62,225 nucleotides of DNA from Chthoniobacteraceae bacterium (lineage in GTDB: Bacteria > Verrucomicrobiota > Verrucomicrobiia > Chthoniobacterales > Chthoniobacteraceae). The notes beneath the pieces are model-generated. The model saw only the letters and a program-made list of their open reading frames with translations. It made no database searches and was not told the DNA's origin. Position 1 is the first letter of the stretch. Every line of letters begins with the position of its first letter. Positions 5,735 to 53,846 of the stretch are shown one piece after another. The stretch spans positions 1 to 62,225 of the forward strand of contig CANFNA010000001.1 in the NCBI GenBank assembly GCA_947448395.1, given 5' to 3'. Both the position numbers and the translations under genes were made by a program.

Positions 5735-8700
5735 CTACTTGAGGGTTTGGAGGTAGGACTGAATATCCTCAAGCTCTTGCGGGCTGAATATCGTCGCCAT
5801 TGGAGGCATGGGACTGACGCCAAGTTGCTCAAAGCCTTTTGCCAAAACCTTGTTCGGCTCTAAAAGACTTTCCTTAATGTATTCTTTTGTTGCCCGAGAG
5901 GCGATGCCATCAAGGGCTGGGCCGACAGCGCTGCCCTGTCCCTTGATTGCGTGGCACAAGATGCATGCAGCAGCATGTTTGAAAACAAGCGTCTCTCCAC
6001 GGATAGCATCTCCGGGGAGTAGAGAAGTTACGTTGTTCTCCGGGGGCGCAATTTCACAAAGCTTTAGATCATCCCACCACGCTGTGCCCTCGCCGACATG
6101 GAGAAGGTTGATGCTCGCCTTTGTTTTTTCGCCGCTATCGAAAATAGACTCCACCTCTGTCCACTCCTTCCGGCCGTTTATTTTCTGCGTTTCAGCTCGA
6201 CCAATGTGGTCGTTAAGGCTGGCTTTGCCGCGAAGGCCATCGGTACGAATCCAACCCGACAATCGGTATTGAGTGTGGGGTTTCACCGCGACCTCCATGA
6301 AGAAACTCGTGTCGGCTTGCGCTGTTGTTGTGCAACGAATGGCCTGTTTCCCGCCGTGCAGCTGTTTTGGGTCGGTGACCACAGACCATTTCGCAGAGCT
6401 GTTGCCTTGGGCTTTATCAGCCGATCCATAATCGCGGCGTTTCCACCCCTCTGGGAATCCATCCCCTGCTAGGATCTCTAATCCAGCGTTTTTGAGTAGG
6501 TTCGGTCCCTCTTTAAATTCAGAAAGATTATTCCGGTTCAGTAGGACGCGAAGTGCCTGCTTTAGCCATTCGTCCTTTTCTCCAGCGCTGGTGCGCTGAA
6601 TGTTTTGCACGACGGCCTGAATGTGCTGAGTCGCTGGGAATTCTGCTAGTTTGACCCAAGCTGCGAGCTTCGTGACAGCATCCGAGTCCGAGATCACTGA
6701 AGCGCTAAAAAACAGCTTTTGAGCAGCATCATCAGTGCCAAGTGCGCGCACGGCGTTTCTCCGAAGGCGCGCGTCCTTGGCAGTTAACGCGGCACGGTGC
6801 GTTTCTTCGTCCAATTCATGAAGACCGTGTAAGGTCCATAACGCGTGCAACGCGCCGATCGTCCCATCATTCGCTTTCACTAATGTCTGAAGAGTGACTT
6901 TCGAATCGTTTGCCTTTCCCTCCACGAGCACGCGTTGTGCAGTGTTTCTCCAGAAGGGATTGGCATCCCCCAGTCGCGTGATCCACTCGGTTTGGCTCCG
7001 AGGCCCAGCCGGCAGGGATTTGCTCAATCCCGTGGGGGCTTTGTTCCAGACAAGGCGATAAATACGGCCGCGACCATGGTCCCGAAGTGGGTTTTCGTGG
7101 GCACCTCCAACGCCTGTCTTGGCGTCAAATCCGCCACGTGCCGTGCTCGGGGTGGGATTGTGCTGGATAATGAAATTCTGCCAATCGCAAAACCAAACAG
7201 CGCCATCGGGCCCCACCTCGGCGCAGACAGGCGACATCCATTCGTCGGTGCTAGCCACAAGGTTAAAACCGTCTCTGGCCACATATCCAGCGCCACTCTG
7301 CCGGACATCCATAAGAGCGACGAGCTTCATTGTCGGCTCGCAAACCATTGCCTTTCCCTGCAAGCGCTCAGGAAGATAGGGCGAGTAAATAAAACTGCTA
7401 CCAGCCGCCGCGGTGTATCCGCCAAAGACGTCTACCTGTCGGAAGTTCGGGGTGATCGGATGTGCTTTGTCTTCTACATTGATTCGCTTTGCAGACATCA
7501 ACTGCATACCCGCCGGCGCTACAGTTGCAGGAATGCCACCATAGAAAATGGGAGCATTATTCGCGGTGCCACCAAATTGGTCCCCGGCATCATTCGCGCT
7601 CTGGCCCCAAGTATTGTTGCTGAACTGATGCAGGAATTGGAGTGCGGATCCATCGGGGCGGAAGCGATAGGTGCCTTGGCTAAACTGAAGTTCCTTGCCG
7701 CCAACCTCACCTTTGAAACCGGAGTAACCCACCGCACCATACAGCCAGTTATCCATTCCATAATGGAGATTGCTCGCCTGTGCGTGTGTATCGCGTATCC
7801 CCCATCCCGTGAGAATCTCCTGACGAATGTCGGCATGATCATCCCCTTTACTGGATTTTAGAAAAAGGAACCGAGGAGGTTGCGAAACGATGATTCCCCC
7901 GTTTGCGAAAACAATTCCCGTTGGGATGTTCAGCCCGTCCGCAAAAACCGTGAACTTGTCCGCTTTACCATCCCCATCCGTATCCTCGCAGATAAGAATC
8001 CGATCGTTCCCCTTCCCGTCTTCTTTGACGTCATGCGGGTAATCTTTAGTTTCCGCAAGCCAGAGGCGCCCACGTTCATCCCAAGCCATGGCGATGGGTT
8101 TTCCAATGTTCGGCTCGCTAGCGAACAGCTCCAAATGCATGTCGGCAGGTACTTGCGTCCGCTCGATGCTACCATTTACGTCGAAGGGATGTTGGAATGA
8201 CAGGGCTTCGGGGCGCTTCTCGTAATTGGCGACAAAGGAATGAACTTCACGCTTCTCTGGGCGTGAGCTCTTGAGAAAAGCCTGCCAGTTCGATTTGCGG
8301 GCTTCTCCGACGCTCCAAACGATGGCATTTCTGAGCATCCGTTGAAAGTCGCTGTTAGACCAGGTCCTCTCATCATGGCCACTGGCTGTGTAAAATACGC
8401 GCCCATGCCCCTGCTCGCGAACCCACGTCCAAGGCTCGCGATGATCGCCATCCACGCGCTCTGCCAGTAATTTACGCCCTTTCTCATTGAGACCTGCATG
8501 CACGTACGTTTCATCCCAAGTCTCGTATCCATGGACGCCTTCAAAAACAGGATGCTCCGGCGCTAGGATGCGTGGTTGAAAGGTTGCCGTTCCGTGCGAC
8601 TTAAACTCACCCCCGACCAAAGCAGCGAATCTCGGGTCGTTTTTAAAGCAGGCAGAGGCGCAGTGAATGGGCAGGAAACCATGGCCCTCCTCCACGAAGG

Positions 8701-9001
8701 TGTTCAGCGCGGCGAACTGCTCTGGCTTAATTTGGCCGTGGTTCGCGTAGAGCATGACCGCATCGTAGTGACTGAGCGTTTCAGAATTCAGGCACTGATC
8801 AGGGTGCGTGAAGTAATCGAACCAAATTGCCTCTCTCCCAAAATTCTGCATGAGCAGCGGAAGCACTTTTCCAGAATCGTGGTGCGTGCTTTCGTGGCCC
8901 AGAAAAAGAACTCGAATGGGTCCGGAGCCAGCCCAAATCGAACTGGCGGTAAAGAGATAAAAACTGAACAGGACCGTTAGAAGTCGGAGGGGAGTTTTCA
9001 T
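5735..9001 (-). CDS. secreted multidomain protein: ThuA-like + beta-propeller dehydrogenase domain + HEAT repeats + CBM/jelly-roll-like module + C-terminal c-type haem-binding domain
   Basis: Signal peptide MKTPLRLLTVLFSFYLFTASSIWA. ThuA motifs (IRVLFLGHESTHHDS, GFLPIHCASACF, RVFYTASGHD). Dehydrogenase domain (LELFASEPNIGKPIAMAWDERGRLWLAET...GNDRILICEDTDGDGKADK). HEAT-like repeats. CILCHAIKGQG at the C-terminus. Confidence 0.85.
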   Translation of the reverse strand: MKTPLRLLTVLFSFYLFTASSIWAGSGPIRVLFLGHESTHHDSGKVLPLLMQNFGREAIWFDYFTHPDQCLNSETLSHYDAVMLYANHGQIKPEQFAALNTFVEEGHGFLPIHCASACFKNDPRFAALVGGEFKSHGTATFQPRILAPEHPVFEGVHGYETWDETYVHAGLNEKGRKLLAERVDGDHREPWTWVREQGHGRVFYTASGHDERTWSNSDFQRMLRNAIVWSVGEARKSNWQAFLKSSRPEKREVHSFVANYEKRPEALSFQHPFDVNGSIERTQVPADMHLELFASEPNIGKPIAMAWDERGRLWLAETKDYPHDVKEDGKGNDRILICEDTDGDGKADKFTVFADGLNIPTGIVFANGGIIVSQPPRFLFLKSSKGDDHADIRQEILTGWGIRDTHAQASNLHYGMDNWLYGAVGYSGFKGEVGGKELQFSQGTYRFRPDGSALQFLHQFSNNTWGQSANDAGDQFGGTANNAPIFYGGIPATVAPAGMQLMSAKRINVEDKAHPITPNFRQVDVFGGYTAAAGSSFIYSPYLPERLQGKAMVCEPTMKLVALMDVRQSGAGYVARDGFNLVASTDEWMSPVCAEVGPDGAVWFCDWQNFIIQHNPTPSTARGGFDAKTGVGGAHENPLRDHGRGRIYRLVWNKAPTGLSKSLPAGPRSQTEWITRLGDANPFWRNTAQRVLVEGKANDSKVTLQTLVKANDGTIGALHALWTLHGLHELDEETHRAALTAKDARLRRNAVRALGTDDAAQKLFFSASVISDSDAVTKLAAWVKLAEFPATQHIQAVVQNIQRTSAGEKDEWLKQALRVLLNRNNLSEFKEGPNLLKNAGLEILAGDGFPEGWKRRDYGSADKAQGNSSAKWSVVTDPKQLHGGKQAIRCTTTAQADTSFFMEVAVKPHTQYRLSGWIRTDGLRGKASLNDHIGRAETQKINGRKEWTEVESIFDSGEKTKASINLLHVGEGTAWWDDLKLCEIAPPENNVTSLLPGDAIRGETLVFKHAAACILCHAIKGQGSAVGPALDGIASRATKEYIKESLLEPNKVLAKGFEQLGVSPMPPMATIFSPQELEDIQSYLQTLK

Positions 9002-9134: not shown

Positions 9135-10559
9135 TCAGAGCGCCGGAAAAAGACAGTCAATTTTAAGAACCGCAACCAGTGTTCCTCCCGCATTCACCAC
9201 GTGAGATACGGGAAGCTTATAACCGTCTTTTACAGGTTCGAATGAAGTGGATGGAAACTCACGAATGCTGAGGACCTGATCCACCAATAGCCCTGTCATG
9301 GCGCCCTCCAAGATCGCGAGGAGGCAGGGGGGATGTTCGCCGGAAGATGCGGAATCCGCACTCCCGTCTTTGTCACTTTGTGGGGGTTGGGCAACCTGTT
9401 TACGCAGGTCAATCACTGGGACGATTCCATCACCAACATCAGCCATGCCATCAAAGTACTTCAGCTCGCTTGGAAGTGGCGTGAGTCGAACTCCAGCCTG
9501 AATGCGCGTGATTCGCTCGAGTGTTAAGCCGAATGTCTCTGCACCGATTCTGACTGTCAGCATTTGCTGGGCGCTCTCTGCGGTATCGCCTTCCTGCTGG
9601 ATGCTATCAAGCTCGATGACTCCACCACTTGTCGGTGCCATGGCTCGTAATTCTTTTTCCATCGGCTCCACGAGCTTGAGAGGATCAATGACCCCAACGA
9701 TGCGGTCTGGGTCGAGCACCAGATATTCACGTACACCGCCCATCGGCTGTTCCATCGCGTACACGTTGTCGGGCGCGAAACGCTCTAATCCGAGCGCCTT
9801 ATCAATGAAGAGAGCCACTTGCGGTCCATTCTCCAATTCTGCGACCAAGCAAGTCTCTCGCCCAGCAGACAGCTCTTTTCCTAATAGCCGAGAAGTGGAC
9901 AGCGCTAATATCGGAGTGCCTCGTAGATCAATCAATCCGAGGACCCAGTCAGGGGTGCCAGGCATGAAGCGAATATTCCCAGGGTTGTTCAGTTCTAAAA
10001 CGTCCCCGGATGCGAAGGCATAATGCTCGGAGGCAATCTCCGTGAGCAGAAAGGAAATGGATGCCGCTGAGATTTCTGCGGAAGTACTTTCAGGCTTATC
10101 TGCAGAGGCCAACATGACTTCGCCGCTCGGAACCAATGCGTCTACAACGTCGGATTGGCTGAGCCTTTCGATGTCGAGCATGTGGAGCGTCTCATTGCCG
10201 TGCGTAAACGCTGCTTTGAAAAGCGGATGATCGACCGATGCGTCTGCGTTAGATTTGAGAGCCGACTCGGAGTCGATCTCGATCATGGAGTTCACCTGCT
10301 GCACGCGGAGGGCAAGCGAACCGCTGGCGTCTGTCACCACAATGAGAAAGCCGCCCGGGGGTTGTGTTTGTCCAAGTACACGAGCCAGATCGATCTGCGG
10401 TACGACCTGACCGATGGCCTCCACGAGACCTTCAAATGCGGCACTGGAAAACGGCAGAGGTGTCAGCGGACCTCCTTCTACGACGCCGATGACTCGGTCG
10501 TGCGGAATCGCGACAGCCGTCTCATTGAATTTGCAGCATAGAAGATTCAGTTGAGCCAT
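9135..10559 (-). CDS. cheW: chemotaxis scaffold protein with three CheW-like domains
   Basis: Three successive CheW-like modules. Each has the pattern 'xxAIPxxxVxxV...(I/V)PxIDLxxxLG...(L/V)VD' (e.g. VAIPHDRVIGVVE...VVPQIDLARVLG; HYAFASGDVLEL...GTPILALSTSRLLG; TFGLTLERITRI...IVPVIDLRKQV). It is the last gene of the che operon. Confidence 0.8.
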   Translation of the reverse strand: MAQLNLLCCKFNETAVAIPHDRVIGVVEGGPLTPLPFSSAAFEGLVEAIGQVVPQIDLARVLGQTQPPGGFLIVVTDASGSLALRVQQVNSMIEIDSESALKSNADASVDHPLFKAAFTHGNETLHMLDIERLSQSDVVDALVPSGEVMLASADKPESTSAEISAASISFLLTEIASEHYAFASGDVLELNNPGNIRFMPGTPDWVLGLIDLRGTPILALSTSRLLGKELSAGRETCLVAELENGPQVALFIDKALGLERFAPDNVYAMEQPMGGVREYLVLDPDRIVGVIDPLKLVEPMEKELRAMAPTSGGVIELDSIQQEGDTAESAQQMLTVRIGAETFGLTLERITRIQAGVRLTPLPSELKYFDGMADVGDGIVPVIDLRKQVAQPPQSDKDGSADSASSGEHPPCLLAILEGAMTGLLVDQVLSIREFPSTSFEPVKDGYKLPVSHVVNAGGTLVAVLKIDCLFPAL

Positions 10560-10574
10560 TGGAAAGGATGAGAG

Positions 10575-12326
10575 TTAACCGCCTTTGGATTCCATCGACC
10601 AGACGCCATCCCAATCGGCTCTAGGGGTGGACGCAAGGACGCGGCATCGGTCCATGAAGACCTTGCATGCTTTGTCCCGCGGATTGCATTCCAGCGCAGA
10701 CTCAAATTTTGGCAGCGCAGCGCGGAACTGTCCTGCAGTGTAGAGCTTGAACGCTGCATCAAAGGCTTCCAGCCAAGGTCCATCTTTCGCTTCCTCGTAC
10801 TTATAAAAAATCTCGTGCACCTTCGTGGGTGTTTGTTGGCCTTTGACACGAACGCGATCAATCAAACGGGAGTGAACTGGAATCGCAAGCTGCTCGAAAG
10901 TAGCTCCACAAACGAGCAGCTGTGCGCCGTAGTTGCTGGTCAAACTTTCAATCCGCGATGAGAGGTTCACAGCGTTTCCGATGACCGTGTAATTCATGCG
11001 TTCGGGCGAACCCAGTTGACCGGCCACCACCTCACCCGTTGCCAAACCAATTCCGATGTTGAATGGCAAATGACCGTCTGCCAGGCGGTCTGAATTGAAC
11101 AGCTCAAGCGCTTGGAGCATCGCAATTGCGCCTTGCACTGCATTTTCCGCGTCTTTGCCTGTACTAGTTGGAACGCCGAATAACGCCATTACGGCATCCC
11201 CTATGAATTTATCGATGATTCCAAAGTTACCCTTAATGACATCGGCCATGAAGGTGAAGTAATCGTTCATCATCGTCACGAGAGCCTCTGGATGAAGGCC
11301 CTCGCACAACTTAGTGAAGCCCCGTACATCACTGAAAAGGATCGTGGCCTGCGCAAGCTTGCCTCCTAAGCCCAAATTTTGACCTGACATCACCGCGTCA
11401 GTCACGCTGCTGGACATCGCGCGATCGAGAACCTTGCGCAGCGCTTGTTCCGCAGAAACATCCTCAAAAGTGACCAACAACGCCGCCGATTTCCTTAAAT
11501 CTGGGGCGGCGGGTACAATGCTGATGCGAAACGGGACCCACTCGCCATCCTCGGTCGAAAAATCGACCCGATGGGCCTTTTTCTCTGCGCCAGTTGCAAG
11601 AACTTCGCGGATTTCGTCAGCAATCAGTTCATTAAACTCTCCGAACAGTTGAGATAAGGGCAAGCCGATAGGAATGGCCGTATTGCGTCCCAACAGCTTT
11701 GTTGCGATCTCGTTTGCGTAGACCACATTGAGGCCGATGTCTAAAGCGACTACTCCTGAGTTGATGGTATTGAGAAGCGCAGAATGAACTGTGCGCAAGG
11801 AGACGGGCGGTGCAGCTTGCGCTGTCGCTGCTGGATTCTCAGCGACTTCCTCACTCTGCAGCGCGTCCTCTTCACCTTCAGATTCTCCATTCAGAGGGAG
11901 TCCGCACACGCGACGAAGCGTCTGAACAATCTTGGATCCGCGACTGCTCTTGATGTCCATGCTCACGGAGCCGGACGGTTTGTCTAAGACATCGGCGGCA
12001 CCTAAGCGAAGCGCTTCCGCACGCTCTGCGGATCCTTCAAATCCGAGTGAGGACAGGATGACTACCTTTGAGGGACTGCGCAGACCCAAGCGACGGAGCG
12101 TCTCTAAGCCGGAGAGCTCGGGCATTTCGATGTCGAGAAGCACGACATCCGGACGGTGCTGACGAACCTTCTGTAAAGCAATCTTTCCGTTCTCTGCGGT
12201 GTCGATTACCCGCAGGTCAGGATCGGACTCCACAATTTCCCGTACCAGACGACGCATGATGTTGCTGTCATCTACGACGAGCACATTTTTAGGACCGATT
12301 GGCTGTGCAGCAGGGGTTTCCATCAC
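10575..12326 (-). CDS. response regulator with PAS, class III adenylate/guanylate cyclase and TPR-like domains
   Basis: Canonical CheB/CheY-type receiver (VLVVDDSNIMRR...PDVVLLDIEMPELSG...VVILSS...GAADVLDKP). PAS-like segment (LNTINSGVVALDIGLNVVYANE...). Cyclase homology domain (ATILFSDVRGFTKL...IDKFIGDAVMALFG...NYTVIGNAVNLSSRIE). TPR-like tail. ATG at 12323 is an equally good start because it shares one nt with the upstream TGA. Confidence 0.85.
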   Translation of the reverse strand: MMETPAAQPIGPKNVLVVDDSNIMRRLVREIVESDPDLRVIDTAENGKIALQKVRQHRPDVVLLDIEMPELSGLETLRRLGLRSPSKVVILSSLGFEGSAERAEALRLGAADVLDKPSGSVSMDIKSSRGSKIVQTLRRVCGLPLNGESEGEEDALQSEEVAENPAATAQAAPPVSLRTVHSALLNTINSGVVALDIGLNVVYANEIATKLLGRNTAIPIGLPLSQLFGEFNELIADEIREVLATGAEKKAHRVDFSTEDGEWVPFRISIVPAAPDLRKSAALLVTFEDVSAEQALRKVLDRAMSSSVTDAVMSGQNLGLGGKLAQATILFSDVRGFTKLCEGLHPEALVTMMNDYFTFMADVIKGNFGIIDKFIGDAVMALFGVPTSTGKDAENAVQGAIAMLQALELFNSDRLADGHLPFNIGIGLATGEVVAGQLGSPERMNYTVIGNAVNLSSRIESLTSNYGAQLLVCGATFEQLAIPVHSRLIDRVRVKGQQTPTKVHEIFYKYEEAKDGPWLEAFDAAFKLYTAGQFRAALPKFESALECNPRDKACKVFMDRCRVLASTPRADWDGVWSMESKGG

Positions 12327-12826
12327 GATTTATCGGGCGAAAGGTCAGAAATATTCTCGGCAGCCTCTCTGCTCAACGCGACCAGAGCGTTAAGGAAATC
12401 GCGCTTTTGGGAGCGGTCTTGCATGGGCCAGTGAGCAGACGTGCGTACTCGAACCGAGAACGTTCCATCTGGTATTCTGAGGGCAAGGTCGCAGAGGTTG
12501 CTGATACGGCGCGGGAGGGCGGGAAGCGGGCACAATGAGGAGTCGTCGCAATGAACGATTTGCTCAACCGCATCAACAATGAGAAATGCGGAGTACTCAC
12601 CGTCGTCCGAGAGCCAGTGGAGTCCAGCGCATGAATCCGTATTCGGGGAACAACCCGGCTGCAGTAACTTACGGACATCGACTACAGGCAATGCGGGTCG
12701 GATTTGTTTCCTTGGAATTTGGCGTGGCAGCACCGCCCCCCGCTCTAGCGCGCAAATCGAATGAATGCTTCTGCCCGGAAACAGGAGTCGGTAATTGAGA
12801 CAACGAGTGGCGACGTGTTCGCTCAT
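12323..12826 (-). CDS. divergent single-domain CheW-like protein
   Basis: RPALPVVDVRKLLQPG...YSAFLIVDAVEQIVHCD...LPALPRRI...LALRIPDGTFSVRV follows the CheW core pattern. ATGA overlap with the cheA stop and TGATG overlap with the next gene. It is too divergent to be certain by eye. Confidence 0.5.
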   Translation of the reverse strand: MSEHVATRCLNYRLLFPGRSIHSICALERGAVLPRQIPRKQIRPALPVVDVRKLLQPGCSPNTDSCAGLHWLSDDGEYSAFLIVDAVEQIVHCDDSSLCPLPALPRRISNLCDLALRIPDGTFSVRVRTSAHWPMQDRSQKRDFLNALVALSREAAENISDLSPDKS

Positions 12827-15555
12827 GGCGCCGAGAGGGTCTCAAGATTGTGGGTTGGATGGTTTCTGAGGCCAGTAACCACGGAGCGTTTGGCTAATTC
12901 AAAAAGACCGTCTGGATCAACGACGATCACGATTCGATCTGTGCCTAAGGTAGAGATGCCCCCGATCCCTGGTAAGTGGGCGATGCGTGGGTGCATTTCT
13001 TGGATCAGCAGATCATTGCGTCGCAATATTTTATGAACCTCGATGCCGATTCTGCGTTCCCCATATTCACAGACGATAATCGACATGAGCTCATGGGCCA
13101 TTCCTACGGGAGAAGGAAGCTGAAGCAGGTCCACTAACCGGAATACGGGCAGAAAGCGATCGTGCAGGAGAATGGAACGCTGACCATTGACGAGCTGCAG
13201 CTCGCTGCTTGGAACAAGTGTACCCTCCACCACGATCCGGTCTGGGAACGCCACGGTTTGAATGCCGGTTTCAGCAAGAAGCATCGGCTGGATGGCCTTC
13301 GAGAGAGGCATATCCAAGCGGAAAGTCGTTCCCCGTCCGGCGCGTGTTTGGATCTCAATTTTTCCGCCAAGCTTTGTCACGTTTACAAGTGCGACATCCA
13401 TCCCGACGCCACGCCCAGACGTGTCTGTAATTTTTTCGGCGGTTGAAAAACCTGGGGTGAAAATAAACCGCGCAATTTGCTCATCACTCAAAGTCTTGCT
13501 TTGCTCCTCACTCACCAACCCAGCGGCAACCGCTTTTCCACGGACCCGCTCGATATTGATGCCGCGACCATCATCCGCAATCTCGACCACAATATGGTTT
13601 CCTCGTTGTTCGGCGGACAACACGAGAGAGGCGGTGCGGGGTTTTCCGGCAGCCAGCCTGTCTTCAGGCCCTTCGATACCATGGTCAACGCTGTTGCGGA
13701 GCATATGCATGAGCGGATCCGCAAGTAGCTCAACCATTCCATTATCCACCCGAATTCCTTTCGAGTGCGCTTCGAATCGAACGAGTTTTTTTTGTTTTTG
13801 CGCGGTATCTCTGACCATGCGCGGGAAGCGATTGAAAAGCGTATCGATCGGAATGACGCGCAGACCGAGCGTGGTTTCGTGAATGAGCGAAATTAAACGG
13901 TGCGCTTCCGCCTCGAGGGAGGCGAAGTCATTCTGCTGACGCACCAGCCAGTCAATCTTCGGAAGCAGTTGGGGCGCGTGGCGTCCCATGTAGTCCGAGA
14001 GTTCGCGGAGAATCTCGTGAGCCTGACTGTCGTAGACCATCGCATTGAAGCGAGATGAGACGCTGAAGAACTGGCCAATCCGGCCAAACATCATATCGAG
14101 TAGCTCGACAGGAACTCTGACCTGTGCGCCGCCCATCGCTGTCGCGGTCGAGGGCTTTAGTTTGATTCCAAAATGAGCGGCGTTCTGGCGGCCATCCAAT
14201 TTCCGCAATACCAGACCGTCAGCATGAGGAAGTTTTAGGGTGAGTAATGTGCGAAATTCGTCTTCGCGTTTAGAACTGAAAATCAGGAAAGCGAGAGAAG
14301 CGCCGCCATCAATCACGGTCCGTTCCGTTAGTAAAATTTCGCAGACTCCGCTGATTGCATTCGAAAGCTCCGCTAGTGCAGTCCCCTCGGCTGGCTGTGG
14401 AACGATGGCCTCATAGAGTTCGCCACTTCGGCTCTTTATCCACACCGGCAGACGCTCCAAGAGACTGGGCGGCGCGATTTGAAACCGGTCGGGATCAAGC
14501 TTTCTAGCGGTCCACCACTTCTTCCCAGCCTCCGGCACGAGAATGCTTGCCAGAAGCCGCTCACGGATTTGTTCCGCTGCTAGCGCAGACAACGGGGAAA
14601 TCTGTGCCGCATCGGTTTGCAAATCCGAGTGGATAGCATCGTGGGCAACTTGCAGTAGATGCGATTTTGAGGGATCAGAATCTGGGAGATTAGCAATCGC
14701 CGGCAAAAGCGCACACATTGGGGATCCAGGCGTCAGGACTGCGAGAAGGTCCATGCCTCTGAGAAGTTCACCTCGTTGTAGTAACTCTTCGAGTTCCCTC
14801 CGAAACCATGAGCGCACCGCGAGTGCAGCTTCAGCCCAACCGCATGACGTTCCGATCAGATGCCGGAAGTTTTCGAGCACACGTAGAAACTTGGCGAACG
14901 CAAAAGCGGTCTTTCGCGAAGCTGCTTCCGATAGGGCCTGAGTGAGGGCCGGTAGATGAATTCGGCTCAAGGCAAACTGGATGAGTTCCACGTCTTCGTG
15001 AACACGCTCGGGTGAGCAGGAAGAGGGGTCCGCGAATGCGCGCGCCAGATCTGGGAGGAGTTCCTCAAATAACTCCCCTTGTGCAACCAGAGTGTCCGAG
15101 TCAAAGAAGAGGTCGGCGTTGGGATGTTTTGTGTCATCCGACGACGTCTTGGCGGTTGTTGCGAGAGAGCCACCGCCTTTCAAAGCGGCTTTGAGGCCGT
15201 CAATCAGCTGGGGATTGGCTTCAAACTCTTTGCCCGCGAGCAGGTCTGCCCGAGCTTGCTTGATTGCATCTAGTGCTTTCAGAAGCAAGTCTTGGGCATC
15301 GTCATTGAAGCTCTGGGAACCCGAACGAAAGGTCGCCAGAAGCGATTCCGACTCGTGGGCGAGACTTTCTAAGGCCGCGAAATTGACGACGCGTGAGAGG
15401 CCTTTGACAGAATGAAAACTGCGGAAGAGCAGATTGATTTCGTCCGCCGTTGGTGGCTCTGTTCCGGGCCGGACGAGAATTTGCTCAGAAGCCTCGATAT
15501 GTTCGGAGACCTCATTTGCAAATTCCTGCACAAGAGCTGGATCACGTTGGCTCAA
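12823..15555 (-). CDS. cheA: chemotaxis histidine kinase CheA (Hpt - long insert - dimerisation - HATPase - CheW-like)
   Basis: Hpt with LFRSFHSVKG (His48). Dimerisation segment QVRVPVELLDMMFGRIGQF. N box DPLMHMLRNSVDHGIE, G1 box EIADDGRGIN, F/G2 boxes FTPGFST...SGRGVGMDVA. C-terminal CheW-like domain. The apparent start is TTG, overlapping the upstream stop (TTGA). Confidence 0.9.
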   Translation of the reverse strand: MSQRDPALVQEFANEVSEHIEASEQILVRPGTEPPTADEINLLFRSFHSVKGLSRVVNFAALESLAHESESLLATFRSGSQSFNDDAQDLLLKALDAIKQARADLLAGKEFEANPQLIDGLKAALKGGGSLATTAKTSSDDTKHPNADLFFDSDTLVAQGELFEELLPDLARAFADPSSCSPERVHEDVELIQFALSRIHLPALTQALSEAASRKTAFAFAKFLRVLENFRHLIGTSCGWAEAALAVRSWFRRELEELLQRGELLRGMDLLAVLTPGSPMCALLPAIANLPDSDPSKSHLLQVAHDAIHSDLQTDAAQISPLSALAAEQIRERLLASILVPEAGKKWWTARKLDPDRFQIAPPSLLERLPVWIKSRSGELYEAIVPQPAEGTALAELSNAISGVCEILLTERTVIDGGASLAFLIFSSKREDEFRTLLTLKLPHADGLVLRKLDGRQNAAHFGIKLKPSTATAMGGAQVRVPVELLDMMFGRIGQFFSVSSRFNAMVYDSQAHEILRELSDYMGRHAPQLLPKIDWLVRQQNDFASLEAEAHRLISLIHETTLGLRVIPIDTLFNRFPRMVRDTAQKQKKLVRFEAHSKGIRVDNGMVELLADPLMHMLRNSVDHGIEGPEDRLAAGKPRTASLVLSAEQRGNHIVVEIADDGRGINIERVRGKAVAAGLVSEEQSKTLSDEQIARFIFTPGFSTAEKITDTSGRGVGMDVALVNVTKLGGKIEIQTRAGRGTTFRLDMPLSKAIQPMLLAETGIQTVAFPDRIVVEGTLVPSSELQLVNGQRSILLHDRFLPVFRLVDLLQLPSPVGMAHELMSIIVCEYGERRIGIEVHKILRRNDLLIQEMHPRIAHLPGIGGISTLGTDRIVIVVDPDGLFELAKRSVVTGLRNHPTHNLETLSAP

Positions 15556-15983
15556 GGTCTATGAGGGGGTTGGGCGGCGTGCCGCAATTGTTTGATATAG
15601 TCCGTCGAAGCCTCAGAAAACAGGAAGGTGCTCGCCTTTCCTTGAGGCTTTAGAAGAACAGCCGAGACGCCGATGGATACCAAAGGATCCAAGGCGGCAA
15701 GTCCGGCGGCCGCGGCTGCACCAGTAACTAGGATGGGTGCGGAGGTGAGGAGTGTCAGCTTAGCAACTAAAGCGGCAGCTTCAGAGAGCTCGAGCGTATC
15801 GAGGTCGATCAAGAAAGCGGCTGCAGGCGAAGACCGTGCAGATTCGATCGCGCGGGTTTCGGGGATGACGGTGATTGCAATAGATGCGGTTGGGTTGTCG
15901 TCTCGGGCGCATCCGGATTCGAGTGCCGCGGCGAATGCGGAGTCTGAAGAAACCAGAAATAGAGGAAGCTCCGCGCGACTCAT
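15552..15983 (-). CDS. small receiver-like (CheY-fold?) protein with an incomplete acidic pocket
   Basis: Start re-picked at the ATG that forms ATGA with the cheB stop (143 aa). Pattern LFLVSSDS / AAFLIDLDT / PILVTGA / AVLLKP matches REC beta1, beta3-Asp, beta4-Thr and beta5-Lys spacing. The DD pair is replaced by S-S-D-S. Confidence 0.45.
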   Translation of the reverse strand: MSRAELPLFLVSSDSAFAAALESGCARDDNPTASIAITVIPETRAIESARSSPAAAFLIDLDTLELSEAAALVAKLTLLTSAPILVTGAAAAAGLAALDPLVSIGVSAVLLKPQGKASTFLFSEASTDYIKQLRHAAQPPHRP

Positions 15984-17077
15984 GGGGTTAAAGACGGGGA
16001 GGTGTTTACGCCGGTGCGACCGAATGAGGTGAACCAACGCCGCAGGGTGAAGGCGATTTGTTCAGGGGTCTGGATCTCGCGCGCGGCTCCATTTTGAATC
16101 GCTGCGGAAGGCATACCTGCGACCGCGCAAGTATCTGGGCGCTGTGCGATCACGGGATAGCCCTGAAGCATGAGTGCGTGCGCCCCCTTAGCGCCATCCT
16201 GACCCATACCGGTAAGGATCATGGAGTGTGTTGGGATGCGCGCGGAGGCCGCGGTTTCCAGCAGATGATCGATGCTAGGATGAAAAGGGTTACCGGGGAC
16301 TGTCGCCTCGCGCAAACGAAAGGCGCCGGCGGTTCCTCGGAGGATTTCAAAGTCACGACCGCCCTGCACGAGCCCTATAATTCCGGCTGGGGGCACTGGG
16401 CCGCGGCCTACTTCAATGACCGTGTGTCCAGAGTCTTCGCGTAGACGTTTTGCAAATTCCGCGGTCTCACCTACGGGCATGTGCTGAGCAATCAAAAAAG
16501 GGAGAGTTGGTTTTGGAATTTCTTTGAGAAGTTTCAACAGGAGAGGTGGTCCACCAGTGGAAATGCCGATGACCACGAGCTCTGGAGGCAGAGGTTTTGG
16601 TGGGCTGCAAGGCAGGCTCTCTGATTTGACGCCAGTGGCGGATGACACTGAAACAGGAGCTTCGGCCAGAAGGCTGGCTGTTCCCTGCAGCCAAGCCTCG
16701 CGAAGGCTACGCACAGCCTTTGGTAATTCAGACTGAAGGTGGGCGAGATCCATCTCGCCAGGGCGCCGTCCGGAAAGAGCTCGCACCGATGGTTTCGAAG
16801 ATAAAGAGACGGGGAGTGGCAGAGCTTTTGGACTTAGGACCAGCGTGGGCTCCCGGCGGAGCGTCAGAAATTTTTCGAGTTGCGCACCGTCTTGCTCGAG
16901 GAGGAGTTCGATGTCGACCAATGCCACGCAATCGGTGGAGGTTCTCAACAGGCGCTCGATTCCTGAGCAATCGCGTTCTTCCCCCAGAAGAACAAGCTCC
17001 GGCGCCTCACTAAGAGCCTTTCGCAGAACGATGGCGGTGAAGGTCGATTTAACTCCAAGACAGACGCGGAACTTCAT
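15980..17077 (-). CDS. cheB: protein-glutamate methylesterase CheB with a degenerate receiver domain
   Basis: Methylesterase triad motifs are present: VVIGISTGGP (Ser), IAQHMP (His), ILTGMGQDGA (Asp). The N-terminal REC-like domain reads KFRVCLGVKS where VxxDDS is expected. Confidence 0.85.
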   Translation of the reverse strand: MKFRVCLGVKSTFTAIVLRKALSEAPELVLLGEERDCSGIERLLRTSTDCVALVDIELLLEQDGAQLEKFLTLRREPTLVLSPKALPLPVSLSSKPSVRALSGRRPGEMDLAHLQSELPKAVRSLREAWLQGTASLLAEAPVSVSSATGVKSESLPCSPPKPLPPELVVIGISTGGPPLLLKLLKEIPKPTLPFLIAQHMPVGETAEFAKRLREDSGHTVIEVGRGPVPPAGIIGLVQGGRDFEILRGTAGAFRLREATVPGNPFHPSIDHLLETAASARIPTHSMILTGMGQDGAKGAHALMLQGYPVIAQRPDTCAVAGMPSAAIQNGAAREIQTPEQIAFTLRRWFTSFGRTGVNTSPSLTP

Positions 17078-17919
17078 ACGTGAAATCGTCCTTTCTTTTT
17101 CCAGGCTATAACCCGGGAGTCCGTTAGCATTTCAAACTCATCGGTCTCGCGGAGCGTATCAGCGGGGCCCAGCATTAAAACGCCTCCTATTCGCAGCGTC
17201 CGCTCGAGTTTTTTTTGGACGACTCGAACGGTGTTGGAGTCGAAGTAAATGAGGATATTCCGGCATAGGATGAGATCGACTTCGGTGAGAGGAGGTGCGT
17301 CTTCGATGAGATTGCGTTGCTGAAAGGAGGTGGTCCTGCGCAGGCCATCATCGGCTTTCCATATTTTCTCGGTACCTGCCAGAATGGACTGGAAATGGTG
17401 CCGAGCAAACGCAGGCACATCGCGGAAGCTATTCAATCCAGAGCTGACAGTATATTCGCCAGCGCGTGCTCGGTGAATCATAGCGGGGCTAAGATCAGTG
17501 CCGATTACTGATACGTCCCAGAGCGAAGCCGAGGGCCCAAAAAATCGGCTAATCGCATCGCGGAGCATGAGGGATGTGGAGTAAGCCTCTTCACCAGAGG
17601 AACATCCTGCACACCAGGCCCGGAATTGTTTTTGGCCCACTGAATGTTTTTCTTCCAGTAGGCTCGGAAGAACGGTTTCAGCGAGAAATTGAAGCTGTGA
17701 GGAATGGCGGAAAAAATAGGTCTCGTGGATAAGAAAAGGTTCGATGAAGTCAGCCCACTCTTGACTCCCTGGAGAGAATCCAGCGATGCGGTTTACGGTT
17801 GCTGCGCCATCATCGGAAGAACGATTTTCCAACAACGAATCGACCTTCGGGCGCGAGATTTCGCGACGAAGACCGGTGCGTTGAGCAATCACTTCGGTGA
17901 GATATTCAGCCGGGTTCAT
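17074..17919 (-). CDS. cheR: chemotaxis protein methyltransferase CheR
   Basis: ETYFFRH, the SAM-binding motif FRAWCAGCSSGEEAYSTSLML, and DLILCRNILIYFD are typical CheR motifs. ATGA overlap with cheB. Confidence 0.9.
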   Translation of the reverse strand: MNPAEYLTEVIAQRTGLRREISRPKVDSLLENRSSDDGAATVNRIAGFSPGSQEWADFIEPFLIHETYFFRHSSQLQFLAETVLPSLLEEKHSVGQKQFRAWCAGCSSGEEAYSTSLMLRDAISRFFGPSASLWDVSVIGTDLSPAMIHRARAGEYTVSSGLNSFRDVPAFARHHFQSILAGTEKIWKADDGLRRTTSFQQRNLIEDAPPLTEVDLILCRNILIYFDSNTVRVVQKKLERTLRIGGVLMLGPADTLRETDEFEMLTDSRVIAWKKKGRFHV

Positions 17920-17952
17920 GCGAACAGGGACTTGGTCCCAGAACGGATGCGG

Positions 17953-19857
17953 TTACTCAGTTTTGAATTCTGCAATTAGCCGCGTGTCGTTGGAGAGCTT
18001 GGAAAGCTGCACCATGGTGGCGGTGATTTCTTCGGAGGAAGCGGTGTTGGCCATCGCGATGTTGCGGAGCTGATCCACGTTGCCGTTGATTTGCGAGAGC
18101 GTCGCTTGTTGTTCGTCCATCGCTACGGCAATCGAGCGGACAGACTCTGTTGTTTCGCGAGTGGCTGTTGCAATTTCCTGCATCGCGTCGCCAACAGTTT
18201 CTGTGGCCTCCATGCCGCGTTGGGAGTCTGCGGCGGCTTGCTCTACGATATCCGCAATTTGGCGTGCGTTTTGCGCGGAACTCTCGGCGAGTTTTCCGAC
18301 TTCCTGAGCCACCACCACAAACCCTTTACCGTGTTCGCCAGCCCGTGCCGCTTCGATCGCAGCGTTGAGAGACAGGATGTGCGTCCGATTTGCAATCTGA
18401 GCGATCACTTGAGTGATCTGGTTGATTTTCCGGCTATTCTGGGCGATGGCCTCCACAATCGGGGTCAACTCGCTCACCGCGGACTTTCCTTTCTCAACCG
18501 AGATGGATGCGTTCTCCGCCTTTTGGCGTCCGGATGTCGCGTTTTGGGTTACTAACTTGATGGCTCCGAAGGATTCGCCGAGCGCAGAGGAAATTTGATT
18601 AAGCTGATTGGTTTGTAGTCTTGCTCCATCCGAGATTTGGCTGATGGCGGTGCTTGCTTCATCGACGGACAAGGCCGTCTGAGTCGTCATCGATCGGATC
18701 TTGCCCGCATTGCGCCGGAAAATCTCGAGGGCGCGAGCTAGTTCGCCAAGCTCATCGGTCCGGTTGGTTTCGGGAAGGTCGAAAGACGAATCCCCTTTTG
18801 TGAGACGCGAGGTCTTATCGGTGATGTCCCCCAAAGGAGTAATGAGAAGACGCGAAACAATCTGTGAAGTTGCTAAGCAGATGCCGATTGCGGAGATGCC
18901 AATCAGCATGAAGTAGAGATTGCGAAGTTGCCGGGGTTCATTCATCGCCTCCGAAAGCGACTCGCGGATCACGAGGTGCCAGGCATGACCTTTGTAGGAG
19001 CTGAAGCCGGGAAATTTAGAATAGGCAATGATCTGCTTTTCGCCGGACGGGAGGGTTTCCGTGAAAAAGCCCTTGGTTCCGGTGAATTTAGATGTTGGGA
19101 ATGCTGCGGGGCCTGCGGGGGTGCCGACGGCCGACTTTGGGAACTCTTCGAGAACTTTGCCGGAGCTGGAGATGATGGAAATTGCTGCGCCTTGACTCTT
19201 TGCTTTGAGGGTTTTATCCAAGCCGCCGAGCACCTCGCGAATGGATCGCTCCCAAGAAACGCGATTACTCCAAACGCGGATGGGTTTGCCTGAGGCGTCT
19301 ACGACAGGTGCGGAAAAGTTCAGGGAAAGCCCTTGGGACTTCATGATCTTTGAGAGGTTGGCATCGGCTGCGAGATCGCCGGCATAGCTTTCTGCGTCTT
19401 TGATTTTGCCGCTGATACAGTCTTCAAACCAAGGCTCTCCTTTGACACTGGTGCCGATGATCGAGGCCGTATCGAAGGGGCGTCCCTCTGGGTCTTGGTT
19501 ATTTGCAGCGATGATTTTGCCGCTGGCATCCGCGATGATCATCAAGTCGTAGTATCCGTAGGACTTGGTGTAAAAATTAGCGGCTTTGGTTGCGGCCTCT
19601 GGCGATTCTGCGGCGCCTGGATGGAAGACAAATGCCTGAACATCGCCGTAGCGTTCGAATAGAAGACGGTCGATTTTGTCTGCGACCTGTTCCGTAGCGC
19701 CTGCGAGTTCCTCTCCCTCGGCGTGTTCACGCTGGGAGTAGGACTTCTGAATGGCGATGAAACTGCAGACGAGGAGAGGAATCAGGGCGATCAACAAACC
19801 GCTGACCACGATTTTGAAACCGATGCCCTTGGCGCCGTATTGGGATTTTTCTGACAT
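17953..19857 (-). CDS. methyl-accepting chemotaxis protein (double-Cache-like sensor, HAMP, MCP signalling domain)
   Basis: TM1 [22 protein letters not shown] periplasmic region of about 270 aa has Cache-like motifs ([18 protein letters not shown]...[17 protein letters not shown]). TM2, then HAMP ([14 protein letters not shown]). Conserved hairpin tip [34 protein letters not shown]. No C-terminal NWETF-type pentapeptide. Confidence 0.9.
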
Positions 19858-20121: not shown

Positions 20122-22875
20122 TTAACGCACAGCTCCAGATTGAGGCAGGCTCTTTAGCCAAGCCAGGATGTCCGCAATTTTTTGGGCATCGAGACCGAGT
20201 TGTGAGGGTTCGTACATCAGTGATTGGCCCTTCATTGGGACGACGGATGCGATCTTTGCTTTGGGAACCGTTTGTTGGACACCGCCGACGCATTGAATCA
20301 TCAGTGGATCGCCGTTCGAAACGATCATGCCGTAAATGATCTTTCCGTCCTTGGTTTTGACGATGGAGCCTTCGTATCCGTGCGAAATATCGGCACTCGG
20401 CATGGAAATCGCCTGTGCGATGACTTCCTTGGTTTGCTGTGAGGCAAAAGCGGTGAGATCCGGCCCAAACTCGATCCCCTGATCTCCAATTCTGTGACAC
20501 ATGAAGCAGAGCGATCCAGCGCTTTTCCCGCGACCGACATCCCCCTGAAGTTTCGCAATTTCAGCCGGACTTGGAAGGGTTGGCGCATCTTTGGGCGAGG
20601 GAGGAGGTTCAGAGGAGACGAGCTGAATGGTTTCCGGATCATAGACGCCGGAGGCCTTTAACTTGTTAGCCAGTCCGTGTTGAGACCAGAGAGATTGGTT
20701 GTTGTGTAGTAGCCACCACACCGCTGATTCCTTGCCAGGCAACCCTTGCTCGGCTGCAACCTGCAACATGGCGTTGGCAGCGGACTCAGAGGGAATAAAA
20801 CCAAGGGCGGTGATCAGCATTTTGCGCTGAAGAGGATTGGTTTTCGTCGACGCAATCTGCGCCTGAATTCCTGCGACAGATTCCTCTGGGTGAAGTCTCC
20901 AAGCAATCCCGGCGAAAGCGTCCGTCCAAAGGTCCGAGGAAGTGCCCATGCTTTTGCTCAGTTCAACATAGACTGCACTCTCCTTCCCTTCACAGCCCAA
21001 CCCGAAAGCTTCGAGATAGGCGCGGTCTTTCCCGTCATACTGTTTCGCGATTTTAACGAGTAGCGGGAGGCTTTTGTCTGCGGGTACATTGCGGAGACTC
21101 AAGGCCACCTCGCGGCGAACCGAGGCGACAGGGTCATCAACCATTTTCGTGGCGAGTTTCAACAGGTCTTCGCCGGCGTGTCGCAGCGCACGATAAGCAA
21201 CCAGTCGCTTACCGGCGTCCTTGGACTCGAGAAGCGGTGTGATGTGGTCACGCCCCGTCTGGCCCATTTGAGCCAGAAGCCAGATGGCTCTCGCGGACAA
21301 GTAGGGGTTTGGATCCTTGAGAACTTCCACAACGGCAGGAACCGCTTTTGCACCCTGCGCTTTGAGGCGGGAGAACCCACTCCAGCGAACGTTGTTGGCC
21401 GGACTTTTGAGCGCCGTGATTTGGCCCTCGGTCGTATTGAGATCGATCGTTGGGATTTTGGATTTAAATCCTTTTGGAGCGATCCGGTAAATCGTCCCAG
21501 TCCAATGATTATCCAAGGTTTGGTGCCCGCCCACGCGGGCATCGAACCAGTCCGCCACATACAACGCGCCATCAGGTCCCACGACCACATCGCTGGGACG
21601 GAAAAAGGTTTTCAACTCAATGGACGGTTTACCTCCCAGAAAGTCAGAGCCTGCAAATTGCTTTTCTTTATTGGAGGTTAGGAAATCGAAGCGCTCGAGC
21701 TTCCATCCGGCGCCATCCGCTTTTGGGAAATAGCCGTAGATGACATTTTTCCCTGCTTCGCACGCGAGAAGCATTCCCTGCCACTGATTGCCGAGGGCGC
21801 CATTTTCGTAGAACGCAACGCCCGTGGGTGAGCCACCTCCATACACATCTCCAACAGGCATGGACCCTGGGTCTTCTTGACGCCACTCTGCAATCGGGAC
21901 GCTCTGACCGGGTCGACGGTCGGCTTTCCAAGCCCGCTTTCCGTCAAGTGATGCGAACCCAGCATTACCCCCTTCCATCATAGCGCTCACGCGGCAGGCT
22001 GGTGGGTCGTCGTTATCGCTCTGATAGACATCCCCTAAAGAATTGATGGTCTGTTCGTAGCTATTGCGGAAGTTGTGACCAATAATGGAAACGTTTGTTC
22101 CATCTGGATTCATGCGTGCTGAAAACCCTCCGATCCATACGTGACCATCATCACTTTTCTGCCCCGCGATCTCCTGCATCATATAAGGACTGCCCATCCG
22201 GAATGTCCGACCTGAGCGGTCTGTGAACTGCGCGCCAGTATTGCCCTGATTCCAATACCACTTTCCATCGGGGCCTCCCGTGACGCTGTGAAGGCTGTGG
22301 TCGTGTTGGAGTCCGCCGAATCCGGTGAGTAGGATCTCCTTCTTGTCGGTGGCCGGATCAAAGATGCCGTCACCGTTGACGTCGGTGAAGACAATCATGT
22401 CTGGGGGCTGGGAGACCACGATCTGGTGTCCAAAGACACCCACGCCCAAGGGCGACTGGAGCGAGGGATCTTGGAAAAAGACAGTGTGTTTGTCTGCCTT
22501 CCCACTTCCAGTGGAGTCCTGCAAGACTACGATCCTATCGCCCTCCGGTCTCCGACCGGCGGCTTTGCGGTAGTTCACACCCTCCGCCACCCAAAGCCGG
22601 CCTTTTTCATCAAAGTCGATATTGGTGGGATTGTAGAGATTTGGAGACTGCGCCCAGACAGTCACCTCTAGTCCCTCAGGGACAGAAAACAGATTGGTTG
22701 GGACGCTGACAGGGTCTCCCGCTTCAGGCGAAACAAGAAGGGATGCAGGTGGTGCTGCCGGAGTCTCCTTGGACTTCGAGTTATCGGCGGAATAGACCGG
22801 AGGGACTGATGATGCGAGAGCCAGCGAGAGAGAGCTCAAAAAAATAGCGTTTGGGATCGTGGAGATTTTGGACAT
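20122..22875 (-). CDS. secreted beta-propeller dehydrogenase-domain / HEAT / c-type haem-binding protein (paralogue of 247..4272 without the ThuA and NPCBM modules)
   Basis: Signal peptide. It aligns by eye almost residue-for-residue with the C-terminal ~860 aa of the 1341-aa protein (FSVPEGLEVTVWAQSP...GRLWVAEGVNYR...SDNDDPPACRV...ADWFDARVGGH...). CFMCHRIGDQG haem motif. Confidence 0.85.
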   Translation of the reverse strand: MSKISTIPNAIFLSSLSLALASSVPPVYSADNSKSKETPAAPPASLLVSPEAGDPVSVPTNLFSVPEGLEVTVWAQSPNLYNPTNIDFDEKGRLWVAEGVNYRKAAGRRPEGDRIVVLQDSTGSGKADKHTVFFQDPSLQSPLGVGVFGHQIVVSQPPDMIVFTDVNGDGIFDPATDKKEILLTGFGGLQHDHSLHSVTGGPDGKWYWNQGNTGAQFTDRSGRTFRMGSPYMMQEIAGQKSDDGHVWIGGFSARMNPDGTNVSIIGHNFRNSYEQTINSLGDVYQSDNDDPPACRVSAMMEGGNAGFASLDGKRAWKADRRPGQSVPIAEWRQEDPGSMPVGDVYGGGSPTGVAFYENGALGNQWQGMLLACEAGKNVIYGYFPKADGAGWKLERFDFLTSNKEKQFAGSDFLGGKPSIELKTFFRPSDVVVGPDGALYVADWFDARVGGHQTLDNHWTGTIYRIAPKGFKSKIPTIDLNTTEGQITALKSPANNVRWSGFSRLKAQGAKAVPAVVEVLKDPNPYLSARAIWLLAQMGQTGRDHITPLLESKDAGKRLVAYRALRHAGEDLLKLATKMVDDPVASVRREVALSLRNVPADKSLPLLVKIAKQYDGKDRAYLEAFGLGCEGKESAVYVELSKSMGTSSDLWTDAFAGIAWRLHPEESVAGIQAQIASTKTNPLQRKMLITALGFIPSESAANAMLQVAAEQGLPGKESAVWWLLHNNQSLWSQHGLANKLKASGVYDPETIQLVSSEPPPSPKDAPTLPSPAEIAKLQGDVGRGKSAGSLCFMCHRIGDQGIEFGPDLTAFASQQTKEVIAQAISMPSADISHGYEGSIVKTKDGKIIYGMIVSNGDPLMIQCVGGVQQTVPKAKIASVVPMKGQSLMYEPSQLGLDAQKIADILAWLKSLPQSGAVR

Positions 22876-45392: not shown

Positions 45393-45542
45393 ACCTCGGT
45401 TGTTTGAAGAAAGGAGTAGGGGGAGGCAACCCAATTCAGCATGACCGCAAAGATTTCAAGTTTTCCGTTGGGCGGACTCCCCTCGGAGGAGCCTTTCGGA
45501 GATGCAACCTTCACTGAATAGAACTGGGATTCTTCCCTTAAT

Positions 45543-50600: not shown

Positions 50601-50778
50601 TTTGGCCGTTCGGCATCAACAAAGTCGTCGGGTGGCCCTGATAGAGAGATTCGGTGCCGGCACCTACGACGATCTGCCGTTCGGTCTGACCCGAAATATC
50701 GACCAAATGAAGGTTCGGTTTTTCGTCGGCCGACACGAAAGCGACGAGGCAAAGCAGGGCGGCGAGCAAGGTGTGCAT
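47674..50778 (-). CDS. secreted BNR/sialidase-like propeller - FGE-sulfatase-like domain - BNR/sialidase-like propeller fusion protein
   Basis: Signal peptide [17 protein letters not shown]. Four BNR motifs in the N-domain ([32 protein letters not shown]). Central FGE/SUMF1-like domain ([13 protein letters not shown]...[17 protein letters not shown]...[17 protein letters not shown]...[18 protein letters not shown]...RVFRGGS). Four BNR motifs in the C-domain ([32 protein letters not shown]). Confidence 0.8.
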
Positions 50779-50862
50779 CGGAAAACCGTGTCCCCTGCAC
50801 CATAAGCTGCCAAGTCTGTTTGGATGGCTCGTGCAGTTTTAAACCCCGAACGCAGAGCAGCG

Positions 50863-50890
50863 GGGCCGGGATCGGGCAGGATCCCGGCCC
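50863..50890 (-). terminator. strong GC hairpin (11-bp perfect stem) just downstream of the small basic ORF
   Basis: GGGCCGGGATC-GGGCAG-GATCCCGGCCC read directly. No clean U-run follows on either strand, so a terminator role is uncertain. Confidence 0.35.
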
Positions 50891-50897
50891 GCGTGTT

Positions 50898-53787: not shown

Positions 53788-53846
53788 CTTCCGAGTACTC
53801 CAAACGACCGCGAACCCCCCAAAAAGAACAAGGAACCAAGAATACT

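Follow-up and report, generated by a model that had tools for sequence, protein, structure and literature searches.

In the Pil-Chp system of Pseudomonas aeruginosa, the methyl-accepting chemotaxis protein (MCP) PilJ activates the stand-alone receiver PilG, and PilG activates the class III cyclase CyaB (PMC12632253). The Esn cluster of Geobacter encodes a chemosensory pathway that ends in a REC-GGDEF protein, in which a receiver domain (REC) is joined to the output domain (PMC5585712). A survey of CheR-TPR clusters published in 2012 listed 'mononucleotidyl cyclase' among the output domains found in che clusters, and its Table S2 contains one REC-CHD regulator, in a cheR-TPR cluster of the 'alternative cellular functions' type from delta proteobacterium NaphS2 (PMC3447774). 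Here we describe a che-type cluster on the minus strand of a 62,225-nt stretch of DNA from a Chthoniobacteraceae bacterium, a soil/freshwater Verrucomicrobium (GCA_947448395.1, contig CANFNA010000001.1, read on the forward strand; this whole stretch is called the window). Its eight genes encode, in order, an MCP, the methyltransferase CheR, the methylesterase CheB, a small REC-like protein (X), the kinase CheA, a CheW-like protein (Y), a REC-PAS-class III cyclase-TPR protein and a triple-CheW protein. We estimate the probability that they specify a self-contained Che-type pathway with a second-messenger, not a motor, output at about 0.72.

Genes were called from the list of open reading frames (ORFs) and Pfam, and the junctions were read directly from the DNA. 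The run of eight genes from MCP to triple-CheW protein, at 9135-19857, is borne out by both the ORF list and Pfam, as a preliminary description of this DNA had proposed. Start and stop codons overlap at five junctions (ATGA at CheR/CheB, CheB/X and CheA/Y, TTGA at X/CheA and TGATG at Y/cyclase), and spacers of 33 nt and 15 nt separate MCP from CheR and the cyclase from the triple-CheW protein, respectively; all seven junctions are thus as previously described. The same description held that the window has no flagellar or pilus genes and no stand-alone CheY, and this too stood. Pfam revealed no flagellar, pilus, CheY or CRP-type protein among the window's other 27 large ORFs, and in a tblastn search of the 62 kb, for which CheY and CRP of E. 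coli and the cyclase REC served as queries, the cyclase REC was the sole receiver and no CRP was found. A multidomain REC-PAS-cyclase protein as the only canonical receiver, within 62 kb devoid of flagellar and pilus genes, is the pattern of an output other than motility, one feature of the 'alternative cellular functions' (ACF) class of Wuichet & Zhulin/MiST.

The cyclase protein (582 aa, 10575-12323, minus strand as are all genes of the run) matches Pfam Response_reg (1.5e-23), PAS_9 (6.8e-8) and Guanylate_cyc (7e-25) and has a weak TPR match. Its receiver domain (11970-12284), with the acceptor Asp64 at nt 12132-12134, carries the motifs VVDDS, LLDIEMP, ILSS and LDKP that had been picked out earlier. 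In an alignment of 14 sequences with 44-74% identity, D18, D19, D64, S91 and K115 are invariant. When the five signature residues of a phosphorylatable REC were scored, the cyclase REC had 5/5, X had 3-4/5 and the N-terminal domain of CheB had 1-2/5 at most. The best solved relatives of the cyclase REC are the receiver of Thermotoga maritima CheB (3t8y, 7.5e-28) and Rhodobacter sphaeroides CheY6 (3kyj, 1.8e-26), compared with ~1e-15 for CheY, and its residues 13-172 match the NCBIfam model of the CheB subfamily at 6.4e-36. Judged by sequence, this receiver belongs to the CheB/CheY6 type and has all phospho-acceptor residues. CheY6 and the CheB receiver are direct substrates of CheA.

The state of the other two receivers in the cluster is different. 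CheB (365 aa, 15980-17077) is recognised by Pfam at residues 168-343 only (CheB_methylest, 9.9e-41), and its esterase motifs STGG, QHMP and GMGQDG are intact. Its N-terminal domain is a REC homologue in which, on alignment with the canonical CheBs of a sister variant of the cluster (see below), V-K is found instead of the acidic pair and the Lys is gone. This decay was found in all CheBs of the variant in which receiver and cyclase are fused. X (143 aa, 15552-15983) is a single domain without a match in Pfam or NCBIfam, and annotation pipelines call both X and Y hypothetical proteins. Orthologues of X (n=17) were gathered from the equivalent position in related loci. Their profile aligned with the cyclase REC over 127 columns (hhalign probability 98%, E 1.9e-13), which backs the earlier designation of X as REC-like despite the missing Pfam match. 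The D13-equivalent acidic residue, the acceptor Asp (D60, 'LIDLD') and the Lys (K112, 'KP.G') are kept in 17/17 orthologues, all of which also have the 'KPxG...L' tail of the cyclase REC. They are without the first pocket Asp, and only some of them have the Thr/Ser. X is thus a fast-evolving, partly decayed receiver, and it may still accept phosphate because the acceptor Asp, one acidic pocket residue and the Lys persist in every orthologue. With the DD pair and the Lys lost from the CheB receiver and one Asp lost from X, the only complete acidic pocket is that on the cyclase, in agreement with the first reading of the sequence.

The persistence of these three residues in X at 33-43% identity, and its location where the sister variant has a canonical stand-alone REC, would also be expected if X were the true CheY-like output acting on another target, with the REC-cyclase serving only as a phosphate sink or side branch. 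This seems unlikely, since X is without the first pocket Asp, has a Thr/Ser that is conserved only in Verrucomicrobiota and Polyangia, and has changed far more rapidly than the cyclase REC (67-90% identity across those loci). The pocket of the latter is complete, and the catalytic residues of the attached cyclase are invariant.

The catalytic domain of the cyclase (10830-11351) was analysed in the same alignment. The metal-binding Asp residues D332 and D376 are invariant, as are N453 and R457, and the substrate pair Lys372/Thr446 is nearly invariant. All residues of an adenylate-specific class III (CHD) domain are present, namely two metal Asp, Asn, Arg and the Lys + Thr pair. The domain matches P. 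aeruginosa CyaB (3r5g) at 4.5e-31 and has the identical K/T pair. As this pair equals that of the adenylate cyclase CyaB, cAMP is predicted as the product, and on these residues it is the likely one. By score, the best solved match is Synechocystis Cya2 (2w01) together with its engineered derivative 6fht. Cya2 is natively a guanylyl cyclase, and specificity predictions from two residues are imperfect; the wiring could therefore be as proposed and the product be cGMP or another cyclic nucleotide. We regard such a product as very unlikely, since Cya2 carries E/G at the two positions, unlike the nearly invariant K/T of the window protein and CyaB. C-terminal to the catalytic domain, a TPR-like hairpin is conserved and has an invariant WDGVW at its end. 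The catalytic residues of kinase, methylesterase and cyclase are all intact.

The cluster also contains the core of a Che pathway, that is an MCP with a conserved signalling hairpin domain, CheA, CheW couplers, CheR and CheB. The MCP (634 aa, 17953-19857; Pfam MCPsignal 9.1e-35, HAMP 6e-10) has two transmembrane helices, a periplasmic region of ~270 aa with a weak, sub-threshold dCache_1 match (1.1e-4), a HAMP domain and a signalling domain whose length fits about 36 heptads, as in the 36H class. Residues 318-619 align end to end with residues 196-500 of the E. coli-type Tar model of NCBIfam without length gaps. The tip motif occupies residues 504-513 with the hairpin tip Glu at E508, which is flanked by arms of 125 and 126 aa, and a methylation-type motif (ASSEEITAT) is present. 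CheR (281 aa, 17074-17919; Pfam CheR 1.9e-40, NCBIfam CheR 1.2e-19) is without TPR.

CheA (910 aa, 12823-15555, TTG start) matches Hpt, HATPase_c and CheW/P5 in Pfam, with a single Hpt and no C-terminal REC. P1 spans residues 8-104, P3 begins at about 478, and P4 and P5 finish at 886; these domains are of canonical form. H48 and the residues of the N, G1, F and G2 boxes are invariant. In a search of the PDB, residues 552-886 aligned with E. coli CheA 311-642 at 1.3e-75, and P1 matched as well. The Pfam H-kinase_dim model found no match in this CheA or in any of the ~24 full-length relatives. P2 is the domain that binds CheY and CheB. No P2 is recognisable here; its position between P1 and P3 is taken by a central region of ~400 aa that is specific to the family and for which no match was found by sequence. 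In an AF2 model this region is helical at 152-350, followed by a beta-alpha-beta-beta-alpha-beta fold at 363-452 (pLDDT 80-92 for 152-460). Foldseek with the model recovered P1, P3, P4 and P5 of CheA; for the central module it gave no significant match, and only weak ACT-like matches were obtained for 363-452 (E 0.03-0.14). In a homologue search limited to candidates that have short exact words in common with the query, 23 more full-length proteins of this CheA type were obtained at 53-65% identity, followed by a sharp fall to generic CheAs. The central region is common only to these roughly 24 full-length relatives.

Two further genes encode couplers. The triple-CheW protein (474 aa, 9135-10559) matches Pfam CheW at 4.5e-47 over three tandem stretches. 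For Y (167 aa, 12323-12826) the Pfam CheW match is weak when taken alone (E=0.015), and the earlier designation of Y as CheW-like gains from its orthologues, 8/15 of which match the same model (best 1.1e-5; 5.9e-5 for the orthologue in Lacibacterium). In profile comparisons, Y matched the triple-CheW protein at E 2.4e-4 (hhalign probability 44%), and against the PDB it gave weak CheW matches only (E 0.05-0.37). An AF2 model of Y, built from two sequences, had a pLDDT of 38 and was unusable. With moderate confidence, these sequence matches point to Y as a divergent CheW-like coupling protein.

A scan of one genome per species gave 79 loci (numbered L below), and conservation of the cluster was examined in these by tblastn with the eight window proteins. 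Full-length homologues of the cyclase (~98% coverage, 44-76% identity) occur in many lineages. In 24/24 distinct loci with a full-length cyclase homologue (41-76% identity) and an upstream flank, CheA is located directly upstream, and MCP, CheR, CheB and the triple-CheW protein are also present wherever the contig flank suffices. These loci belong to Chthoniobacteraceae, Acetobacteraceae, Pannonibacter, Rhizobium sp., Elstera, Magnetospirillum, Bradyrhizobium, Vicinamibacteria and a metagenome-assembled genome (MAG) labelled Ignavibacteriota, and include several families of Alphaproteobacteria. A Rhodospirillaceae MAG (L085) and genomes of Chthoniobacteraceae (L001, L002) have all eight genes in the identical order. 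In Pannonibacter tanglangensis (L084) all eight are present with the MCP gene shifted behind CheR and CheB, and Humitalea rosea (L003) has them in two divergent units. Since the flanks outside the module are unrelated between loci, the module is an autonomous unit. Remoter PAS-cyclase homologues (33-37% identity) that have no receiver are found without che neighbours. The association of cyclase and che genes is, on this comparison of sequences, specific to the clade. Retention of the cyclase gene inside homologous che clusters, which the preliminary description had made a test of its proposal, is thus seen in all 24 informative loci and in several phyla.

A sister variant of the cluster, found in about 20 species, has the order MCP-CheR-tripleCheW-CheB-REC-CheA-Y-cyclase (L028, L030-L053 and L069). 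It is carried by Stellaceae, Reyranella, Enhydrobacter and Lacibacterium aquatile KCTC 32017 (L053, 113-11239). Here the receiver of CheB is canonical (Pfam 4.5e-25), and the position of X is taken by a canonical stand-alone REC that is 52-57% identical over its full length to the REC of the window cyclase. The cyclase of this variant is a GAF-GAF-PAS-cyclase-TPR protein without REC; it is still in the cluster and adjoins Y. Because receiver and cyclase are separate in the sister variant, their fusion in the window is Rosetta-stone evidence that the two are functionally linked. Comparison of the sequences of the two variants indicates that the X and CheB receivers decayed after the fusion. In a third form, found in Polyangia/Myxococcales MAGs (L063-L065), a REC-cyclase-TPR protein lacks the PAS domain and its REC is 70-73% identical to that of the window. 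An origin of the REC-cyclase from CheB by domain replacement was also considered and rejected, the stand-alone REC of the sister variant being closer (52-57%) than the RECs of CheB (~40%).

The sister variant bears on the manner in which the cyclase is joined to the pathway. A cyclase that has no REC and stays in the cluster beside Y, together with the TPR-like C-terminus and the invariant WDGVW, might be taken for a structural or accessory member of the array, held through Y or TPR and governed mainly by the PAS domain or by another kinase. We consider this improbable, because the receiver on the cyclase belongs to the CheB/CheY6 class, whose members are phosphorylated by CheA, and has 52-57% identity with the sister cluster's own stand-alone REC. 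Moreover, the neighbourhoods examined show no conserved histidine kinase near the module other than CheA.

The pathway with a second-messenger output, as we propose it, starts from what is observed directly: the gene content and order, the junctions, the intact residues, the type of receiver and the co-conservation across phyla, including the pair of split and fused variants. The MCP, with its dCache-like periplasmic sensor, would assemble into arrays together with the triple-CheW protein, Y and CheA, the last of these joining through P5. Ligand occupancy would set the rate of CheA autophosphorylation on His48, and phosphorylated CheA would pass its phosphoryl group to Asp64 of the CheB/CheY6-type receiver on the PAS-class III cyclase. 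Phosphorylation of Asp64 would alter the geometry of the cyclase dimer and hence the synthesis of cAMP, the predicted substrate being ATP from Lys372/Thr446. Methylation-based adaptation would be provided by CheR and the active methylesterase of CheB; as the CheB receiver is a pseudo-receiver, demethylation probably proceeds without phospho-feedback. X is probably a competitor, a phosphate sink or a docking subunit, and a second input to the cyclase, or its attachment to the array, may come from the PAS domain and the TPR-like hairpin at the C-terminus. What we infer is that phosphate is transferred, in which direction the cyclase is regulated, what it makes and what X, Y, PAS and TPR do. That a chemoreceptor array has cyclic nucleotide synthesis as its output had been predicted from the window, and it gains support from the co-conservation of the genes, a REC of the type that CheA phosphorylates, the degenerate state of the other receivers and the intact catalytic residues.

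Several points weigh against this proposal. X, which has three of the five signature residues everywhere, could on sequence be a real or parallel acceptor. Since the cyclase of the sister variant is without a receiver, array and cyclase might be connected by something other than direct phosphorylation, for instance through scaffolding by Y or TPR. The survey for CheY spans the 62-kb window, and a distal CheY elsewhere in the genome is possible. Scans for sigma-70 promoters and intrinsic terminators were uninformative, with fewer sites than in shuffles and none at the operon ends. Finally, no conserved cyclic nucleotide (cNMP) effector adjoins the module, a cNMP-binding neighbour being present only in Humitalea and Rhodopila.

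A broader reading, which we put forward tentatively and at somewhat less than even odds, is that these clusters form a distinct, cross-phylum class of cAMP arrays, in which a CheY6-like REC was fused to the cyclase, the receivers of CheB and X decayed so that all phosphate from CheA goes to the cyclase, and P2 of CheA was swapped for the helical and ACT-like module. This module may itself bind a metabolite. If the class is real, the split variant of Stellaceae and Lacibacterium and the fused one of Chthoniobacterales, Pannonibacter and Acetobacteraceae would amount to a natural experiment on the control of a class III cyclase by a stand-alone CheY.

Chemoreceptor arrays pair high gain with adaptation. 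An array coupled directly to cAMP would, if the proposal is true, let a non-motile bacterium set a global second messenger by a sensor that reads temporal gradients or adapts. The family is cross-phylum and more general than the single locus had suggested; it is widespread and uncharacterised, with split and fused variants. The fused variant occurs in cultured Pannonibacter spp., Humitalea rosea DSM 24525 and Rhizobium sp. RU36D, and the split variant in Lacibacterium aquatile KCTC 32017. The wiring is directly testable because the family occurs in such cultured, tractable bacteria. Comparison of split and fused variants offers a handle on CheY-like control of class III cyclases, a matter of relevance to virulence of P. 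aeruginosa, in which Pil-Chp/CyaB signalling takes part. The gain in annotation is the description of X as a decayed receiver and of Y as a probable divergent CheW.

A few of the related loci have further genes next to the module. In Humitalea rosea (L003, 15620-16156) and Rhodopila (L014, 8459-8980), a 178-aa cNMP-binding protein is encoded beside the MCP gene; after it, in Humitalea, come genes for two C39-peptidase/ABC exporters and for a membrane-fusion protein. A role as cAMP effector with a link to secretion is possible for this protein. As a general downstream effector it was rejected, for tblastn finds it only in these two Acetobacteraceae. In Pannonibacter tanglangensis (L084, 13540-16826), eight tandem genes of 109-120 aa without a Pfam match are located directly after the module on the opposite strand.

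In the window itself, three giant paralogous ThuA/DUF7133/HEAT/cytochrome c proteins (247-4272, 5735-9001 and 20122-22875) flank the che module on both sides. Such proteins are typical of PVC bacteria, and the paralogues are not kept beside the module in relatives. An FHA-Ser/Thr kinase-WD40 protein of 1219 aa is encoded at 22967-26626. A recF-like gene (26641-27684), dnaN and dnaA (44298-46943) put the window at the region of the chromosomal replication origin. The GC content climbs from about 0.54 to 0.58-0.615 at 48000-56000, and this high-GC stretch carries an FGE-sulfatase/BNR protein (47674-50778) and a planctomycete-type pair of PSCyt/PSD and DUF1552 genes (51313-55205). A CHASE3-PAS-PAS histidine kinase is encoded at 58190-61489, with no partner receiver within the window.

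The preliminary description knew of no experimentally characterised wiring from CheA to a cyclase of this kind. This stands to the extent that no experimental study of CheA-to-REC-class III cyclase signalling was found among open-access papers and preprints; as a concept the arrangement has precedents in Pil-Chp and in the table entry for NaphS2. The general principle is not new, because chemosensory control of second-messenger cyclases, including control of cAMP, is already established.

In function, Pil-Chp is the nearest known system. It is likewise a CheA-type system that raises cAMP through a class III cyclase, its chain leading from PilJ by way of ChpA, PilG and CyaB to cAMP and Vfr, and the catalytic domain of the window protein is homologous to that of CyaB. 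The split layout of the sister variant, a stand-alone REC and a separate cyclase, is as in PilG/CyaB. The window cluster differs in its fusion of receiver and cyclase and in having no type IV pilus genes nearby; its CheA has a single Hpt and no REC, whereas the Pil-Chp class is marked by a multi-Hpt ChpA with a C-terminal REC, by stand-alone PilG/PilH and by linkage to type IV pilus genes, which places the window cluster outside that class. CyaB has an N-terminal MASE2 membrane domain in place of REC-PAS and no TPR, and its activation by PilG may be indirect.

In architecture, the nearest systems are Wsp (WspA, WspE, WspR) and Esn, with which the cluster has in common an MCP, CheA, a receiver-cyclase fusion, adaptation by CheR/CheB and more than one CheW-like coupler. 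The output here is a class III mononucleotidyl cyclase and not GGDEF as in the REC-GGDEF regulator WspR, and CheA is not a CheA-REC hybrid such as WspE, so that the cluster does not belong to the Wsp class. The pseudo-receiver of CheB further distinguishes it from Wsp and Esn, and the triple-CheW protein and X/Y are specific to the window family. NaphS2, a single table entry, resembles the window in having a REC-class III cyclase regulator inside a che cluster. Its cluster has CheR-TPR, whereas the CheR of the window is without TPR and a TPR-like element is found on the cyclase. The closest solved relatives of the window receiver, R. sphaeroides CheY6 and the CheB receiver, resemble it up to the C-terminal 'KPSG..S.D' extension. 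CheY6 is stand-alone and binds the motor, and the receiver of CheB controls a methylesterase; in the window, a receiver of this type is fused to a PAS-cyclase.

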